Shown piece by piece: positions 30,869 through 48,283 of a stretch of 56,648 nucleotides of DNA. The stretch comes from Candidatus Woesearchaeota archaeon. GTDB lineage: Archaea; Nanobdellota; Nanobdellia; Woesearchaeales; UBA10216. Below the pieces are notes generated by a model. The model saw only the letters and a program-made list of their open reading frames with translations, was not told the origin of the DNA and made no database searches. The position numbers were made by a program, and so were the translations under genes. Each line of letters opens with the position of its first letter. The first letter of the stretch is position 1. The stretch spans positions 1 to 56,648 of the forward strand of contig JACPBX010000005.1 of assembly GCA_016180085.1 (NCBI GenBank). The letters run 5' to 3'.

Positions 30869-31084
30869 ATGGCAGGAAATACAGTTGATATGGTATCTAA
30901 GTGGTTAGTAGTTATCGGTGGCCTTAACTGGGGCCTTGTTGGTGTTGGCATGTTTGCCGGATCCGACCTGAATGTGGTAAAGCTTATCCTTGGCGGAATC
31001 GCTGGCGGAGTGCTGGCTAACATCGTTTATGTGTTGGTTGGCTTGTCAGCCCTGTACATGCTCTGGGGCATGTTCAAGAAGTAA
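30869..31084 (+). CDS. DUF378 family small membrane protein
   Basis: LVVIGGLNWGLVG...IVYVLVGLSALY; GGAGGTG SD. Confidence 0.92.
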   Translation: MAGNTVDMVSKWLVVIGGLNWGLVGVGMFAGSDLNVVKLILGGIAGGVLANIVYVLVGLSALYMLWGMFKK

Positions 31085-31092
31085 ATTGATGA

Positions 31093-31130
31093 AAGGGCTA
31101 AGCCCTTCTTTTTCTTCTTCTTTTTTATTT
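31093..31130 (+). terminator. Hairpin plus T-tract terminator after DUF378
   Basis: AAGGGC-TAA-GCCCTT followed by a long T-rich run. Confidence 0.7.
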
Positions 31131-31190
31131 TCTACACTCTCCTTTTTTCGCAAAGGTTTATATAGGAACAGTTCGCATAAAAACACCAGA

Positions 31191-32003
31191 ATGGTTCTGG
31201 AACAGCTTGAAACAGAGTTAAAGCTTCGCGGATTCAGCGAGAGAACAGTAAAAAGCTACCTTTTCTACAATAACAAGTTCCTTGCATTCACGAATAAAGC
31301 CCCAGAGGCTATATCAGAAGAAGACATCAAGTCATACCTGGCCAACCTGATAAGTGACAGGAAGAAAAACGCTGCAACCGTAGCCCTTGTAAGAGCTGCG
31401 CTCAGGTTTTATTATGACGGCGTACTGAAGAAAAGCATCGTAACGCTCAAAACGCCCAAGATACAGAAGAAGCTGCCGACAGTGCTTACGAAGGAAGAAG
31501 TGAAAAAGCTCATCGAATCTGCCGCAACAGCCAAAAGCAAGCTGCTGCTCATGACACTTTATTCCTCAGGCTTGAGGGTAAGCGAATGCACGAACCTGAA
31601 GATAAACGATGTCGAGCTTGACCAGAGGATGGGCTGGGTCAGGCAGGGAAAAGGCGGCAAGGACAGGCTGTTCATACTATCGGACGGCCTTGTAGATGCG
31701 CTAAGGGGCTATGTAAACGGCAAAAACACCGAGCACATTTTCACCAACAAATCAGGCAGGCCATTATCAGCTAGGAACATACAGAAAATAGTGGCTACTG
31801 CCGCAAAAAGGGCAGGGATAAGCAAGGGCGTGAGCCCTCACACGCTCAGGCATTCATTCGCAACCCACCTTCTTGAGAGCGGGGAGAGCATAAGGAAGAT
31901 ACAGGAGCTTCTTGGGCACTCAAATTTGCAGACAACGCAGATTTACACGAAAGTGTCGACGGAAGAATTGAGGAAGGTTAAGAGCCCTCTGGACAGCTTG
32001 TAA
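31191..32003 (+). CDS. xerA: XerA/XerD-like tyrosine recombinase (start ATG 31191)
   Basis: SAM-like N-domain, SGLRVSE (R), GKGGKDR (K), HTLRHSF (H-x-x-R), LLGH, TQIY (catalytic Tyr); AAAGGTTTATATAG promoter. Confidence 0.92.
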   Translation: MVLEQLETELKLRGFSERTVKSYLFYNNKFLAFTNKAPEAISEEDIKSYLANLISDRKKNAATVALVRAALRFYYDGVLKKSIVTLKTPKIQKKLPTVLTKEEVKKLIESAATAKSKLLLMTLYSSGLRVSECTNLKINDVELDQRMGWVRQGKGGKDRLFILSDGLVDALRGYVNGKNTEHIFTNKSGRPLSARNIQKIVATAAKRAGISKGVSPHTLRHSFATHLLESGESIRKIQELLGHSNLQTTQIYTKVSTEELRKVKSPLDSL

Positions 32004-33115: not shown

Positions 33116-33193
33116 TGTAGGCAGGGTAGTCTGCTGCAATTTATAAAGTTCATGCGAAGATTTTTAAATGCCACGGCTGTCCGCAAAAAGCTT

Positions 33194-33598
33194 ATGATAA
33201 AGGTCGCAGACGCCAGAATCGGAACTTGTATTATGAACAGGGGTGAGCCTTCCAAGGTTACCCAGAAAGAGAGGGTTACTGTTGGTACTCACATGCATTC
33301 CAAGACGAGGCTGGTTGTGCAGGGCATTTTCTCAGGCAGGAGCGAGGTTTTGACGCTTTCTCACCATGAGAACCTTGAGGACATTGAAATCACCAACAAG
33401 AAAGGCCAGGTTGTTGCTAAAATTCCTCCCAACCAAATACAGATTATGGACCTGGTCAGCTACGAGACGCTGGCCGCAACAGTTGAAAAGGAAATGTTTG
33501 ACAAGGCCAGCGAGGGCAGCATAGTTACGTTCATTGAGCTGCAGGGCAAAGTGATCATAATAGAAATGAGGGAAGCTCGTGAGGAAGAGCAAAAGTAA
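33194..33598 (+). CDS. Translation factor aIF5A/eIF5A homologue lacking the hypusine Lys (start ATG 33194, 134 aa)
   Basis: Aligns by eye over the full length with aIF5A: G..I...GEP.KV, GTHMHSKTRL (for GKHG.AK.R), GIFSG, K.GQV, QIMDL.SYET, G..V.F.E..GK.II. Confidence 0.85.
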   Translation: MIKVADARIGTCIMNRGEPSKVTQKERVTVGTHMHSKTRLVVQGIFSGRSEVLTLSHHENLEDIEITNKKGQVVAKIPPNQIQIMDLVSYETLAATVEKEMFDKASEGSIVTFIELQGKVIIIEMREAREEEQK

Positions 33599-33613: not shown

Positions 33614-33892
33614 CTAAATTCCAAACGATTCTATGAGTGCCTTCATTTTCCTGAATTCTGCAACAAAGCTGTAGCCCTTTTGGGTCAGGGCAATTAGGTT
33701 TCGGCCTTCGCTGCCGCTGCCTTCGATGGCCAGCATCTGCTGCCTGACCAGGCTTTCGAGGTAAAGCTTAAGCCTTGCGTGGGAGAGGTTTGACTTGTAA
33801 AGCAGCCTCGTGGGCTTCATCTTCCCGCCGCTTTCCTGCACGGCCCGGAGTATGTCGAATATTATTTCGGGCTTGCCCCTTTTTGACGTCAT
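33614..33892 (-). CDS. Winged-helix transcription regulator (ArnR1/HTH_45-like)
   Basis: KR...EIIFDIL.....KPTRLLYKSNLS...L..YL..L.......TQKG..F. Confidence 0.85.
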   Translation of the reverse strand: MTSKRGKPEIIFDILRAVQESGGKMKPTRLLYKSNLSHARLKLYLESLVRQQMLAIEGSGSEGRNLIALTQKGYSFVAEFRKMKALIESFGI

Positions 33893-35063: not shown

Positions 35064-35627
35064 TTATCGCTCCACAAACAAATAGTGCTTCTGCGGCTCT
35101 GTAATCTCGAGCAGTATTCTCTTCTCTATGGCTTTTTCAGGGTCAAGCATCAGCTTAAGCCTTCCTCTCATTTCCTTGAACGTCTCAAACAGCTTCTGGT
35201 CCCTTGCCTCAATGAGCTCCCACATCCTTTTCTTTCCCATCCCGGGCAAAAGCTCAAGGCTGTGCATCCTTGTGCTTAGCGGCTGGGCTGTGTTGAAGAA
35301 GCTGATAAACCTGGTCTCGTTGGCCTTTACTATGTTGGCTATGACGAATTCCAGCTCTGCTTTCGCTGTTGGGGTGAGCTTTGCAGCCGGCAGTCTGCCG
35401 TTTATGTGGTGTATCTTGTCTCTTTTGCCCTCGCCTATGTAGACCTCCTCGTGCGGCTGGAGGGTAATGTCTTTCTTAGGGACAAGCTCAAGAAGCACAA
35501 AATAAGTTTTGCCGATTGCCTGCACTATCGGCGTTTTCATGTAGCCAGGTCTTGTGTCGAAAGGGTAGCCGTTTGGCAGGAAGTCCAGCACTATGACATA
35601 CTCTTCCTTTGTCCTTTGCTGTTCCAT
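35064..35627 (-). CDS. DUF655 family putative RNA-binding protein
   Basis: EEY.IVLDFLP.G, QAIG..YFVLLE, LELLPG.GKK (HhH). Confidence 0.92.
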   Translation of the reverse strand: MEQQRTKEEYVIVLDFLPNGYPFDTRPGYMKTPIVQAIGKTYFVLLELVPKKDITLQPHEEVYIGEGKRDKIHHINGRLPAAKLTPTAKAELEFVIANIVKANETRFISFFNTAQPLSTRMHSLELLPGMGKKRMWELIEARDQKLFETFKEMRGRLKLMLDPEKAIEKRILLEITEPQKHYLFVER

Positions 35628-43113: not shown

Positions 43114-44052
43114 CTACTTCTTCACAATCGCGTAAGTGTGCGTCACATAGACGAAGTGCGGCCTGAACTTCAGCTTGAACTTCAAAAGCGGCATGGGGCT
43201 GCCTCCGAAGTCGACAAGGCCGTAGCCTTTTTCCTTAAGCCTGTGGAGGTCATCGAGGTTGGCAATTTCGCCAAGGCCTTCAAAGGCGTAGTTGCAAATG
43301 CCCATTGCAGAATAGTAAGCATTGTCAGAGTTTGGGATTTCCCAGCCGCAGGTTATGCTGCATGGCTCTCCGTCAACGACCATTGTTGTGGCTAATTTTG
43401 TGCCTTCAAAGCCAATATCAATCATCTTGAGGTATCTTTCATCGTAAGCAAAGTTTGAATCTCTCCTGTTGGCGCCCAGGCTCATAAGCTTCCTGCGCTC
43501 AACCCACTCATTAACTATTTTTTTCAGTTTCTCCCTGCCAACTGTCCTGCTGTCAACCATCTCAACAGAATGCTCGCCATAAAACCTGTTCCTGATGTTC
43601 CTGAGCTTTTTCCAGTCGTCGCCAGCCATATCATCTCCGTGCCACCTTTCCATGTTAAAAACCGGCCAGTAGAGCGAGAACCTGGGCTGCAATGCAGCGT
43701 AGCCGTTGCCCTCAAACGACTTCAAAGTGGCTGCCCTCAGCGCATCGTCCTGCTCAACGACAAATTTCCGGATTTTAAGCTGGCTGAAGCACGTGTCAAG
43801 GGCATCTTTCAAAACACTAACCTGCTTTTCTCTTGGGGCAAGCGCTTCGGAAATCATTACAACTTCTCCTGCCTTTTCCCTGTAATTCGCAAAAATGCCA
43901 AAGCCCTCATCCGACTTCAGGAAAATATTTCTTGCGCCATTATCGGCCGCAGTCGAGAAATATGCGTAGTTGTGCTCTGGCGTGTAGCCGAATTTCCCTA
44001 TGCACCTCTTTATCTCATCGCCTGATTTCTCAGGCATTTCTACCAATTCCAT
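43114..44052 (-). CDS. Divergent DUF2156 / LPG_synthase_C-like (Fem-type GNAT) protein
   Basis: M.GDDWKKLRNIRNRF, EW..R, V.DG...G..., G.G......D...L...GY..VDFGGS...LLKFKLKFRP parallels the DUF2156 C-terminal motifs. Confidence 0.7.
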   Translation of the reverse strand: MELVEMPEKSGDEIKRCIGKFGYTPEHNYAYFSTAADNGARNIFLKSDEGFGIFANYREKAGEVVMISEALAPREKQVSVLKDALDTCFSQLKIRKFVVEQDDALRAATLKSFEGNGYAALQPRFSLYWPVFNMERWHGDDMAGDDWKKLRNIRNRFYGEHSVEMVDSRTVGREKLKKIVNEWVERRKLMSLGANRRDSNFAYDERYLKMIDIGFEGTKLATTMVVDGEPCSITCGWEIPNSDNAYYSAMGICNYAFEGLGEIANLDDLHRLKEKGYGLVDFGGSPMPLLKFKLKFRPHFVYVTHTYAIVKK

Positions 44053-44554: not shown

Positions 44555-45508
44555 ATGGATTCATTGCAGAAGGATGGCGAGTTGAGAGAAGTCTTGCTTT
44601 CTGACTGCGCTTTTTTTGAAAAAGCTTTTTCTTCTGTTCCTGAGCCGCTTGCCGACACTACCTTTACCATGCGCTTTATTTGGGCAGGGCCCCTGAAGCA
44701 TGCCTGGACTGTCATTAACGGGAATTTGTGCGTGTTTGGCTACGATAAGGGCCGCTATGTTGTGTGGGGACCTCCTGTCGGCGGCGCAAAGCTTTCTGAC
44801 ACGATTGCCGGGTGCTTTGAAATTGTAGAAAAGTTGAATGCTGCCGGGGGGGTAAATGCCAATCCTGCTGCGATTTACGTTCCAGAATGCCTCAGGTCAG
44901 AATACGAGGCTGTTGCCGAAAAGCTTGGCTGCTCGCTGGACTACTGGACCCAGGATTACATTTACAAAACCAAAGACCTGATTGAGCTGAAGGGCCCGAA
45001 GTTTGACTCAAAGCGCAACAAGGCCAATTTTTTTATGAAAAATTATGACTACGGCGTTGAAGAGTTTAATTTTGACAAGCACGGCAGCGAGTGCCTGGCC
45101 CTCGTGGATTTATGGAGAGAGCAGAAAGAAGGCATGGAAGGCAGCAGTGCTGACCTGTGGAGGTATGAAATTGGTGCAGAGACCGAAGTTGCAAGGACGC
45201 TGATAGGGTTTTCAAGGGAACTTGGCGTAAGGGGCATAGTGCTAAAGGTTGAAGGCAGGATAGTCGGGGTCAGCCTGGGCGAGCACTTAACGCCAAATAT
45301 GTGCAGCAATATCATTGAAAAGACAAACCCTGCCATTAATGGCGCGTCCCAATTCATTTTCAGGGAGTTTTCAGGTTACTGGTCGCGATTGTCCGGCTGC
45401 GAGTTCCTGAATGCCCAGGACGACTTTGGCGTGGATTACCTGAAAAGAGTGAAGCTGTCTTACCATCCTGCAAAGCTTCTGAAGAGCTACTGTTTGGAAA
45501 AGAAGTAG
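44555..45508 (+). CDS. DUF2156 / phosphatidylglycerol lysyltransferase C-terminal-like protein (soluble, no flippase domain)
   Basis: DYIY...DLIELKG.KFDSKRN..N.F, ECL.LV.LW, G.VL.VEG.IVG..LGE, IIEKTN..I.GASQFI, D.G...LKRVKLSYHP. Confidence 0.85.
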   Translation: MDSLQKDGELREVLLSDCAFFEKAFSSVPEPLADTTFTMRFIWAGPLKHAWTVINGNLCVFGYDKGRYVVWGPPVGGAKLSDTIAGCFEIVEKLNAAGGVNANPAAIYVPECLRSEYEAVAEKLGCSLDYWTQDYIYKTKDLIELKGPKFDSKRNKANFFMKNYDYGVEEFNFDKHGSECLALVDLWREQKEGMEGSSADLWRYEIGAETEVARTLIGFSRELGVRGIVLKVEGRIVGVSLGEHLTPNMCSNIIEKTNPAINGASQFIFREFSGYWSRLSGCEFLNAQDDFGVDYLKRVKLSYHPAKLLKSYCLEKK

Positions 45509-46383
45509 CTGATGAGCTTGTATACGAGCTTTGCTGCGAGAACATCCGGCGCGCGGTTGCCTGGTATGGGCATCAGTTCAGTCACGTCAAAGCCCACAAC
45601 ATTCTTCCCAGCAGCGATTTTCTTCATGAATTCAAGCATCTGGTACCATTGCAGGCCGCCTGGCTGCGGTGTTCCCACAGATGGCATGATGGAAATGTCA
45701 AAAGCGTCAAGGTCAATTGTGATGTAAACGTTCTTCCCAAGCGATTTGACAGCTGCGTCCATCCAGGCGCTGTTGCTGCCGTCATGAATGTCTTTTGCGA
45801 AAAAGGTTTTTATTCTGCCGTTGCTGCTGCGGATGTGCTCCATCTCCTCTTCTGCAATGCTCCTCACTCCAACAGAGACAAGGGGGCACATCTCTGATAT
45901 CCTTCTTGCGACGCAGCCGTGGTTAAACCTGTTCCCGGCAAGCTCATCCCTCATGTCAGCGTGCGCATCAACATGAAGCACCGTAAGGTCGGGATATCTT
46001 TCCATGTGCGCCTTCACTGAACCGCTGCTGATGGAGTGCTCGCCGCCAATGACTGCGACTTTCTTATTGTCACCCAGCAAAACCTTGACAGCCTCATAAA
46101 CCCTGTTGGCCATTTTTCCCGCATCGTCAACCACTTCCACCTCATCCAAGGTGCACACGCCAATCCCGGTAAAGCTCCTTTCGGTCTCCTCATCGTAGAA
46201 TTCCAGGCAGCGGGATGCCTCGATCAGGGCTCTTGGGCCGTTTCTTGTTCCCGGTTGGTAAGTCGTGGTTGCGTCGTAAGGCACAGGCAGGATTACGACC
46301 TTCGATGCGCCATACTCTGCAAGCTCGTGCGGTATTGCCCCAAAATTGAACGGAAGGTAAAAATGCGGATTTTTTGCTGGCAT
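45487..46383 (-). CDS. speB: Agmatinase (ureohydrolase family)
   Basis: PYD.TTTY.PGTR.GP, GGEHSIS, DAHAD, DLDAFD, GFDVTELMP. Confidence 0.93.
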   Translation of the reverse strand: MPAKNPHFYLPFNFGAIPHELAEYGASKVVILPVPYDATTTYQPGTRNGPRALIEASRCLEFYDEETERSFTGIGVCTLDEVEVVDDAGKMANRVYEAVKVLLGDNKKVAVIGGEHSISSGSVKAHMERYPDLTVLHVDAHADMRDELAGNRFNHGCVARRISEMCPLVSVGVRSIAEEEMEHIRSSNGRIKTFFAKDIHDGSNSAWMDAAVKSLGKNVYITIDLDAFDISIMPSVGTPQPGGLQWYQMLEFMKKIAAGKNVVGFDVTELMPIPGNRAPDVLAAKLVYKLISYFFSKQ

Positions 46384-46440: not shown

Positions 46441-46875
46441 TTACTGTACGAGTTCCCTCTCCTTCCGCGCTATAGATGCTGCCTTCTGTACATTTCGCGG
46501 GTAGTGCTTGACAAACGCCTTTCCCCGCTCAATCATGTTTTTCTCTATCCGCTTGGCCTCAAGCCTTTCCATAAGGTATTTTGTGGCGGTTTCCTCGCTG
46601 AAGTACTTGCAGGAGAATATGTCAAATGAAGCAAAGCCGTCTTGCGGAAAGGTATGGATTGCAATGTGGCTCTCCACCAGAATTACGAAGCCGGTCAGGC
46701 CGCCCTTGTCAAAGGAGTTTGGCTGAATGGGGATTTTCGTCAGCTGGGGCGTTGAGAACTTGTGCATGCCGAGCATCTCAGGCATCTCATCCAGGACGCT
46801 GTAAACGAAGTCGTAATCATCCAGCTTCTTTTTATCGCATCCGTACAGGTCAAGAGTCAGGTGTGGTCCGAACAT
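46441..46875 (-). CDS. speD: Pyruvoyl-dependent AdoMetDC-fold decarboxylase proenzyme (SpeD/SpeH family; substrate uncertain)
   Basis: G.HL.LDLYGC, ILVESHIAIHTFP (E/S autocleavage), DIFSC; GAGGTG SD. Confidence 0.9.
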   Translation of the reverse strand: MFGPHLTLDLYGCDKKKLDDYDFVYSVLDEMPEMLGMHKFSTPQLTKIPIQPNSFDKGGLTGFVILVESHIAIHTFPQDGFASFDIFSCKYFSEETATKYLMERLEAKRIEKNMIERGKAFVKHYPRNVQKAASIARKERELVQ

Positions 46876-47147: not shown

Positions 47148-48113
47148 TCATTCAAAAAAATAATCATTGGACGCTATCAGGAGAGGGAAAATCACAGCTG
47201 CATCGCCGTAAATTGTGACGTCCCTGGCATTTTCGCTGATTTTCCCCCAGGATTTTGCCTCGCTTGTCGTAGCCCCTGACAATGAGCCGTGGTATGGCGA
47301 GCTGCTGTTGACGTAAATGGCGTAGTCAAGGCCTCCGCCAAGAATGTTTGAAATTATTGTGTGGTGCTTTGCTATGCCTCCGCCAAGTATTATCGCGCCG
47401 ACTTTCCCGCTTCCACTCTTTTTCGCGGAAATTGCGAAGTCAATTGCCTCAATTGCGCCTTTAAGCTCGTTCACCCTGAAATCCGGGTGCGTCTGCTGGA
47501 AAAACGCGAGTTGCAGCCCAACCGCGCCATCGGTTATTCCCGGGCAGAATATTGGAATGCTGTTCCGAGCAGCGTGGTAAACGAATGAGTCTTCAGTGTC
47601 AAGGTTCATGCCAATCTGCCTTATCAGTTCTGTTACCGTAAATTCGTGGCTGGTGCTGGTGTTATGGATTTTTTTCAGGACCTCAGCCATTTTTTCTTCC
47701 AGATACTCGTAGCATTCATTTGGCACGAATATGCTTCCCATCCTGTTGATGCCTTTCCTGCCAAGCTCGGCATCGTCCGCCTCAAACGTGCCCTGAAAAT
47801 AAGGCATTTTTGCCCTGGCGATGTCCTCGTCAAGCGCGCCGCTGCTTACCACAAGGGCATGCACCTTTTTTCTTTTGACCAGGTCTGTTATTATGCCGCG
47901 AATGCCTGATGCGGAAATGTTCGATGTGAAGCTCAGAAATATCGTTGCCTTGTCATTAACCATCTTGGCCAGAATTTCGGCAGCGGTTGCAATATTGTGC
48001 GTCTGGAATCCCGAGTTTTTGAGCTGCCGCACTAATTCAGCAACTGGCATGCCTTTCCTGAGCCGGATATCGGCAATTGGAGGAAGATTAAGGTTGCCGT
48101 CGTTGCTTTCCAT
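47148..48113 (-). CDS. dhs: Deoxyhypusine synthase family protein (likely start ATG 48113)
   Basis: SFTSNI..SG.R, G..DED, IFCPGITDG, LGGGIAKHH, SLSGA..SEA.SWGK (catalytic Lys present). Confidence 0.93.
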   Translation of the reverse strand: MESNDGNLNLPPIADIRLRKGMPVAELVRQLKNSGFQTHNIATAAEILAKMVNDKATIFLSFTSNISASGIRGIITDLVKRKKVHALVVSSGALDEDIARAKMPYFQGTFEADDAELGRKGINRMGSIFVPNECYEYLEEKMAEVLKKIHNTSTSHEFTVTELIRQIGMNLDTEDSFVYHAARNSIPIFCPGITDGAVGLQLAFFQQTHPDFRVNELKGAIEAIDFAISAKKSGSGKVGAIILGGGIAKHHTIISNILGGGLDYAIYVNSSSPYHGSLSGATTSEAKSWGKISENARDVTIYGDAAVIFPLLIASNDYFFE

Positions 48114-48283
48114 GTTGCCAGTCAGCAAAGCCCGATGTTATATAAAATTTACCAAAAAAAACATTAAATCAAAAAATACCTGGGCAAATCCGAAAGGACA
48201 CTGATAGAAAACTATTTATACTTAATTCTTAAAAGTTTTAGTTAGGTTGAGAGTGTTGTTGGGTGTGCAGGGCTGATTTGTAA

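Follow-up and report, generated by a model that had tools for sequence, protein, structure and literature searches.

What does an archaeon do with an aIF5A-like protein that has no lysine to be hypusinated? To our knowledge, the hypusine lysine of a/eIF5A counts as both essential and universally conserved. Nevertheless, the stretch of 56,648 nucleotides analysed here (the window), from a Candidatus Woesearchaeota metagenome-assembled genome (MAG), encodes a protein of this kind with threonine at that position. Is it a second copy beside a canonical factor or its replacement, as the original prediction had left open, and what could it do? Open-literature searches for an archaeal aIF5A paralogue, an archaeal counterpart of EfpL or hypusine in DPANN returned nothing relevant. 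The answer matters beyond this locus, because the gene belongs to an order-wide and strongly constrained subfamily with an invariant threonine at a supposedly universal hypusine position. Its carriers are uncultivated, and a recombinant protein makes the subfamily testable.

A divergent aIF5A homologue with threonine at the hypusine position

The gene, its loop codons and the neighbouring features are listed in Table 1. The 134-aa frame had been proposed to have aIF5A features from end to end, and both profiles and fold bear this out. NCBIfam NF003076 matches residues 3-124 (E=1e-18, 67.1 bits; cut-off 138 bits) and TIGR00037 matches residues 2-125 (E=6e-12, 45.6 bits; cut-off 75.45 bits). PF21485 reaches 20.1, below its cut-off of 27.1, and a scan with the C-domain model PF01287 (cut-off 24.2 bits) gave no match. 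The EF-P family TIGR00038 aligns along profile positions 2-124 of 184 only, with 24.8 bits (cut-off 185.8). Since every curated family score falls under its cut-off, the protein has to be regarded as a divergent member. With 14 homologues as input, AlphaFold2 gave a model of pLDDT 85.8, which Foldseek matched to archaeal aIF5A structures with TM scores of 0.78-0.83 at probability 1.0 (1bkb and 8put_E at 0.83). Thus, the protein is a divergent aIF5A homologue end to end, with a similarity well outside what chance would give.

Table 1. Coordinates of the features discussed in the text (positions in the window)
Feature	Position	Strand	Remarks
XerA-type tyrosine recombinase, upstream neighbour of the paralogue	30990..32003	+	
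TATA-like box ATTTTTAAAT	33160..33169	+	read in the sequence; ends about 24 nt 5′ of the paralogue ATG
aIF5A-like paralogue gene (P0001)	33194..33598	+	ATG to TAA, 134 aa; SH3-like N-domain and OB C-domain
Loop-tip codons G31-T32-H33-M34-H35-S36-K37	33284..33304	+	T32 (ACT, 33287-33289) in place of the hypusine Lys
Neighbouring gene	33614..33892	-	
Neighbouring gene	35064..35627	-	
Stand-alone LPG_synthase_C/DUF2156 gene, first of two	43114..44052	-	aminoacyl-tRNA transferase fold; beside the speB-speD-dhs run
Stand-alone LPG_synthase_C/DUF2156 gene, second of two	44555..45508	+	aminoacyl-tRNA transferase fold; beside the speB-speD-dhs run
Agmatinase/arginase-family enzyme	45487..46383	-	polyamine supply; same gene run as DHS
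S-adenosylmethionine decarboxylase	46441..46875	-	polyamine supply; same gene run as DHS
Deoxyhypusine synthase (DHS)	47148..48128	-	311 bits to PF01916; SWGK catalytic-Lys motif kept

The threonine itself is equally clear. Codon 32 reads ACT within the loop V-G-T-H-M-H-S-K-T-R, and HMMER alignments with solved archaeal aIF5A structures (8put_E, E=6e-12; 1iz6; 1bkb; 1eif) place Thr32 on the hypusine Lys of t-G-K-H-G-s-A-K with no gap in the loop region, in agreement with the substitution as first proposed. In the AlphaFold2 model, residues 30-35 form the predicted tip of the β3-β4 hairpin.

The orthologues of the genus begin with the same MIKVAD. Upstream, a TTTA/AA(T/C) element with four invariant bases, T-A-A-A, is found at the same spacing to the ATG in seven of eight genus orthologues. 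We infer that the TATA-like box is the promoter of the paralogue, whose own transcript would then be leaderless or nearly so.

Conservation of the threonine-tipped loop

Is the threonine a peculiarity of one genome? When 1.8 billion representatives were searched exhaustively with a profile, 240 relatives emerged; among these, around 35 of the clusters formed at 50% identity have the loop G-T-H-(S/M/C/T)-H-(S/T)-K. The GTH-type sequences, taken from genomes and metagenomes, are otherwise down to about 35% identical, and yet the G, T, H, H and K of their loop motif G-T-H-x-H-(S/T)-K are each invariant in 56 out of 56. The loop thus proved to be conserved in relatives, a point on which the original prediction hinged, and close relatives have no lysine at this position either. 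The same residues (G31, T32, H33, H35 and K37) are invariant in 14 full-length homologues of the same family that are 37-89% identical, and in the main clade no part of the protein is more conserved than the loop tip G-T-H-x-H. Many public proteins show 48-93% identity to the paralogue. They are named either 'hypothetical protein [Candidatus Woesearchaeota archaeon]' or, at JGI, 'translation elongation factor P/translation initiation factor 5A', names that call for care in annotation.

Comparison with 76 canonical sequences shows what has changed in this loop. The hypusine Lys is conserved in 100% of them, and this Lys, the Gly at +2 and the Ser at -4 are conserved in 93-100%. All three are switched in the paralogue: Lys to Thr, Gly to Ser or Met, and Ser to Val. 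Because the paralogue has no Lys, no Gly at +2 and no Ser at -4, its loop tip is predicted to be one that cannot be deoxyhypusinated. The other residues of the loop are less novel than they had seemed. It had been described as a His-rich, possibly metal-binding H-M-H loop; as a novelty this is not supported, since the canonical aIF5A of the same lineage already reads S-R-P-G-K-H-G-H-A-K and, judged from the alignment, both loop histidines and the following Lys are inherited from it.

Within the genus, omega is 0.078 for the paralogue vs 0.092 for canonical aIF5A. The paralogue has a median pI of 6.1 and a net charge of -2, equal to those of the canonical protein. Because the frame is intact, the threonine invariant, omega low and the promoter-like element conserved, we are highly confident that the paralogue is a functional gene and represents a subfamily of paralogues.

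Coexistence with a canonical aIF5A

Does the same organism also have a hypusinable aIF5A? The second, GKHG-bearing copy considered in the original prediction is absent from this assembly and present in most relatives. In the assembly of this MAG (G000; 1.0 Mb, 45 contigs, 82.8% complete), a search for a second aIF5A-like gene found none besides the Thr-tipped paralogue. In the genus, ten genomes were sampled, G000 counted, and 7 have canonical aIF5A; both genes occur together in six of the nine other genus genomes as well as in several other genera of the family. In these relatives the two are readily told apart by their NF003076 scores, about 150 bits for the canonical protein and 57-84 bits for the paralogue. 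In the sample of family f1, 9 of 14 carrier genomes have the canonical copy, seen as SRPGKHGHAK in eight of them. An even sample of 301 genomes of the order contained 34 carriers of the paralogue, spread over about 26 families; in 30 of these 34, a second match reaches the canonical level. The genomes of three carriers, G154 and G229 from the order sample and G516 from that of the phylum, are unpublished, and our conclusions are independent of them.

The gene order around canonical aIF5A helps to interpret its absence from G000. In 30 canonical loci from 17 families, aIF5A is adjacent to S2P in 29, covering all 17 families, and a block of aRF1, a SprT-like gene, aIF5A and S2P is present, whole or in part, in 30 of 30. 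The full block was counted in 13 of the 30 loci and 4 of the 17 families, a count confined to genes that lie inside these short loci. The S2P neighbour is an M50-type membrane protease with HExxH, and the SprT-like protein is a metalloprotein (L003-L032, L051, L052). None of the genes of this block, including the essential aRF1, was found in G000, and a search for the 20 kb that surround the block in two congeners recovered next to nothing there. Near the block in the genus there are also ORFs whose translations, read and not scanned, we take to be ribosomal protein L37ae and prefoldin beta, and both are without counterpart in G000. The other two congeners that lack the canonical copy, G003 and G006, lack the essential aRF1 too.

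Because the whole block, with the indispensable aRF1, is absent from a MAG that is 82.8% complete, the canonical copy is likely to be unassembled: the co-absence of aRF1 indicates an assembly or binning gap and not a loss. In addition, the intact DHS and polyamine genes in G000 lead one to expect a Lys-bearing substrate. We therefore think it quite probable that a canonical aIF5A exists in this organism and was left out of the assembly. Of the two possibilities raised at the outset, that of a paralogue stands, given the canonical copy in most carriers of the order; the evidence speaks against that of a lineage-specific replacement, given the absence of the entire block from G000, and gives no support to an archaeon that lacks a hypusinable aIF5A.

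The same aRF1-aIF5A region is missing from three congeneric MAGs (G000, G003 and G006) that are 83-89% complete, which suggests a recurrent failure of assembly or binning of this region in the genus. Five other carriers also lack a detected canonical copy, one of them 95% complete, and DHS is retained in four of these five paralogue-only genomes. In G260, the contig stops exactly at the position where aIF5A is expected. The aRF1 frame of this genome (L085:4788-6299, G260:C130) is open over 519 aa, with around 140 extra residues at profile position 174 that may represent an intein or another in-frame insertion. The 95%-complete genome is G166, in which aRF1 and the SprT-like gene lie on a 63-kb contig with no aIF5A-S2P next to them; neither aIF5A nor S2P was found when sought elsewhere in this genome. 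Here the block is broken right after the SprT-like gene (L083:7119-9103, G166:C23) and a convergent vWA-domain gene follows, together with further genes that, as read from the sequence and not scanned, presumably encode a MoxR-type ATPase and a DUF58-like protein. The region is not collinear with that of G038, from the same family. Here aIF5A-S2P may have moved to a contig that is missing, or the loss may be real.

These cases carry a warning for annotation and for metabolic inference from MAGs: in incomplete bins, the paralogue can pass for the sole aIF5A.

Origin, range and gene neighbourhood of the subfamily

In a maximum-likelihood tree of 153 sequences, a branch with SH-aLRT 98 parts all canonical aIF5A, that is, Woesearchaeal and other archaeal representatives, from the paralogue side, made up of 56 GTH sequences and 18 variants. 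The tree was built with a quick search on 125 columns and contains long branches; on this basis, the subfamily may stem from an ancient duplication or may be a rapidly evolving lineage that arose inside Woesearchaeota.

The paralogue side also includes small groups with an S-(K/R/S/T)-H-S-H-T-K loop. In addition, it includes a well-supported subclade (P0101, P0109, P0115, P0135, P0136, P0143, P0167, P0186, P0211) in which the G-T-H-x-H motif has been lost through substitutions and deletions and the rest of the aIF5A-like body is kept. The existence of this subclade suggests that part of the function of the family is independent of the tip.

How widely is the paralogue distributed? All 20 carriers in a sample of 400 genomes of the phylum belong to the order of the window, and carrier records are titled as groundwater and other Candidatus Woesearchaeota MAGs. 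Some records bear other names. Two genomes titled Candidatus Undinarchaeota/Undinarchaeales (G543, G544; L119, L120) have a GTHSHSK paralogue together with a canonical aIF5A; either their label or the purity of the bins is doubtful, because their 3.6-3.8 Mb is far above the expectation for Undinarchaeota. Carriers titled 'uncultured Methanosarcinales archaeon' (L099, L101, L103, L104, L108, L110) are probably mislabelled.

Clustering of the ORFs at 40 paralogue loci revealed no neighbour common beyond the genus, and no modifying-enzyme, partner or RNA-metabolism gene conserved beside the paralogue at these loci. Neighbours are common only within genus g1: xerA, a winged-helix (wHTH) gene, a membrane protein and DUF655. 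Downstream of the paralogue, the genus has a small HTH_45 winged-helix protein, a membrane protein without family hit and DUF655.

Deoxyhypusine synthase, polyamine genes and DUF2156

The DHS of the window had been called divergent. This is not what we find: besides its profile score and its SWGK motif, it matches archaeal DHS 7cmc with E=9e-62 and is, by sequence, an ordinary and intact DHS. It lies 13.5 kb from the paralogue here and on different contigs elsewhere, and it is equally present in genomes that have canonical aIF5A and no paralogue.

The two stand-alone DUF2156 genes beside the polyamine run were considered as a possible partner of the paralogue. Such genes occur in 35 of the 301 order genomes and in 11 of the 34 paralogue carriers, where about 4 would be expected, an overlap that is partly phylogenetic since 4 of the 11 belong to family f1. 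An obligate modifier partner is rejected, 23 of the 34 carriers being without such a gene.

Possible role of the paralogue

What could a hypusine-independent member of this family do? Our preferred reading, held with moderate confidence, is that the GTH subfamily stems from an aIF5A duplication, and has been kept in many Woesearchaeota (DPANN) beside canonical aIF5A and DHS; its most likely role, of which we are less sure, would be that of a hypusine-independent auxiliary factor. The duplication would have given rise to a subfamily defined by G-T-H-x-H-(S/T)-K and maintained by strong purifying selection. The β3-β4 loop of eIF5A contacts 25S rRNA H74/H93 near the CCA end through its backbone and basic side chains, and hypusine reaches A76 (PMC4770232). 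In the paralogue, the loop keeps its length together with His33, His35 and Lys37, position 39 is still basic, and domain II still has the signature Q-x-M-D...Y-E-T. With its body and with the backbone, histidines and lysine of the loop, it would dock between the ribosomal E and P sites, would present there a neutral Thr/His tip, and would serve as a modification-independent auxiliary factor whose range of clients is different from, or narrower than, that of aIF5A, much like EfpL/YeiP next to EF-P in bacteria. By analogy with eIF5A, we tentatively propose that the paralogue is a ribosome-bound, hypusine-independent factor.

The consequences of such a tip may be judged from bacteria. E. coli EF-P with the neutral tips A, M, N or Q is inactive, bacterial EF-P paralogues and variants with other tips exist, and tip chemistry switches between lineages (PMC6544042). 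By analogy with the inactive neutral tips, the Thr tip may not stimulate peptide-bond formation. It is conceivable, and in our view rather doubtful, that the GTH subfamily with its invariant threonine is still active on the ribosome, either unmodified or through a new modification of Thr or His, as a second hypusine-independent rescue or elongation factor of DPANN that might replace the canonical factor in a few lineages (e.g. G166).

Several other readings have to be weighed against a hypusine-independent auxiliary factor. The paralogue might occupy the same ribosomal site without promoting peptide-bond formation, and might compete with aIF5A, regulate it, or serve as a dormancy (ribosome-preservation) factor. 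The combination of a retained body and domain II signature with the loss of the cationic tip fits such a non-catalytic occupant of the E site, as do the persistence of the subclade with a decayed loop, the inhibitory effect of some EF-P tip variants, besides the inactivity of neutral ones (PMC6544042), and the presence of eIF5A on dormant or hibernating ribosomes (PDB titles 9rvu, 8y0u; PMC11063288). However, an idle tip would not be expected to be the most conserved part of the protein in the main clade, and we hold this reading to be unlikely, if still worth serious attention.

A role away from the ribosome appears quite unlikely. Here, the paralogue would be an RNA-binding or RNA-processing protein specialised in the RNA-associated (ribonucleolytic or chaperone) activity of archaeal aIF5A. 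The aIF5A of S. solfataricus associates with RNAs in vivo and has RNase activity on long structured RNA (PMC9599864), and the OB-fold C-domain is retained in the paralogue. Nevertheless, its net charge is not raised above that of the canonical protein, no RNA-metabolism gene is conserved beside it, and a strictly conserved loop directed to the PTC would have no obvious use off the ribosome.

Could another post-translational modification (e.g. glycosylation, phosphorylation or aminoacylation) on Thr32 or on His33/His35 restore a long reactive arm, in the way that rhamnosylation of Arg does in certain EF-Ps? A threonine invariant at the exact position of modification is what such a reading would call for, EF-P tip chemistry is known to differ between lineages (PMC6544042), and there is the weak co-occurrence with stand-alone DUF2156 genes. 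Yet no enzyme gene is conserved beside the paralogue, DUF2156 is absent from most carriers and its overlap with them is partly a matter of phylogeny, so that a new modification seems hardly probable.

We regard it as very unlikely that the Thr-tipped protein is the sole aIF5A of this organism and has taken over the essential function. It is indeed the only aIF5A-like gene detected in G000, and the five further carriers without a detected canonical copy, the 95%-complete one included, could be taken in the same sense. Against this stand the incompleteness of G000, from which the entire canonical block with aRF1 is missing, the co-absence of aRF1 in G003 and G006, the contig end in G260, the canonical gene in most sampled genomes of the genus, and the intact DHS and polyamine genes, which would be senseless without a Lys substrate.

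A paralogue that docks unmodified on DHS, as a decoy or regulator tuning hypusination, is highly improbable: it co-resides with a DHS and its fold resembles that of IF5A in the DHS complex (8put_E, TM 0.83), but the tip residues invariant in the substrate (Ser at -4, Lys, Gly at +2) have all been replaced, its gene is not linked to dhs, and DHS is just as present in paralogue-free genomes with canonical aIF5A. Finally, a pseudogene, a sequencing error or a private mutation, for which only the unusual residue in itself would speak, is refuted by conservation, namely the intact frame, the same threonine in 56 homologues from independent samples, an omega of 0.08 and the conserved promoter element.

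Comparison with known systems

How does the paralogue relate to the factors already described? With canonical archaeal aIF5A (NF003076/TIGR00037; 1bkb, 1iz6, 2eif, 8put_E) it shares the two-domain fold (TM 0.78-0.83), the same length, the length and register of the loop, G31, H33, K37, the signature Q-x-M-D...Y-E-T and G107. It differs in the three switched positions of the loop (Lys to Thr, Gly to Ser or Met at +2, Ser to Val at -4), in the loss of two conserved prolines, in a score of about half the family cut-off, in its location outside the aRF1-SprT-aIF5A-S2P block and in its place on the other side of the split in the tree. In other words, the paralogue departs from canonical a/eIF5A in curated score, in the Lys loop and in syntenic position, and agrees with it in fold.

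In bacteria, the closest parallel is EfpL/YeiP of Enterobacteria, a second copy of EF-P beside the canonical modified one whose tip does not carry the canonical modification. EfpL has three domains, an extended loop and an Arg tip, which is still cationic; its structure (PDB 8s8u) is in the Foldseek listing. The paralogue would likewise be a second copy with an altered tip. Unlike EfpL, the paralogue is archaeal and two-domain, with a neutral Thr tip and unchanged loop length, and the two duplications are independent. Bacterial EF-P and EfpL are built of KOW-like, OB and OB domains over about 185 aa, in contrast with the two domains and 134 aa of the paralogue.

A second parallel is given by the EF-Ps whose tip is neither Lys nor Arg and by the unmodified PGKGP-type EF-Ps, which, like the paralogue, do not have the usual modified Lys or Arg at the tip (PMC6544042; bioRxiv 10.1101/2023.09.18.558224). 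EF-Ps with A, M, N or Q tips make up 4.1% of bacterial EF-Ps, and Thr is not among the reported tips (PMC6544042). Unlike the paralogue, the non-K/R-tip proteins are the sole EF-P of their bacteria, and the function of their neutral tips is undemonstrated. For these reasons of score, loop and synteny, we place the paralogue outside aIF5A proper, in a new subfamily within the aIF5A superfamily, recognised by a GTH loop on a body of about 125-135 aa and by its position on the paralogue side of the tree.
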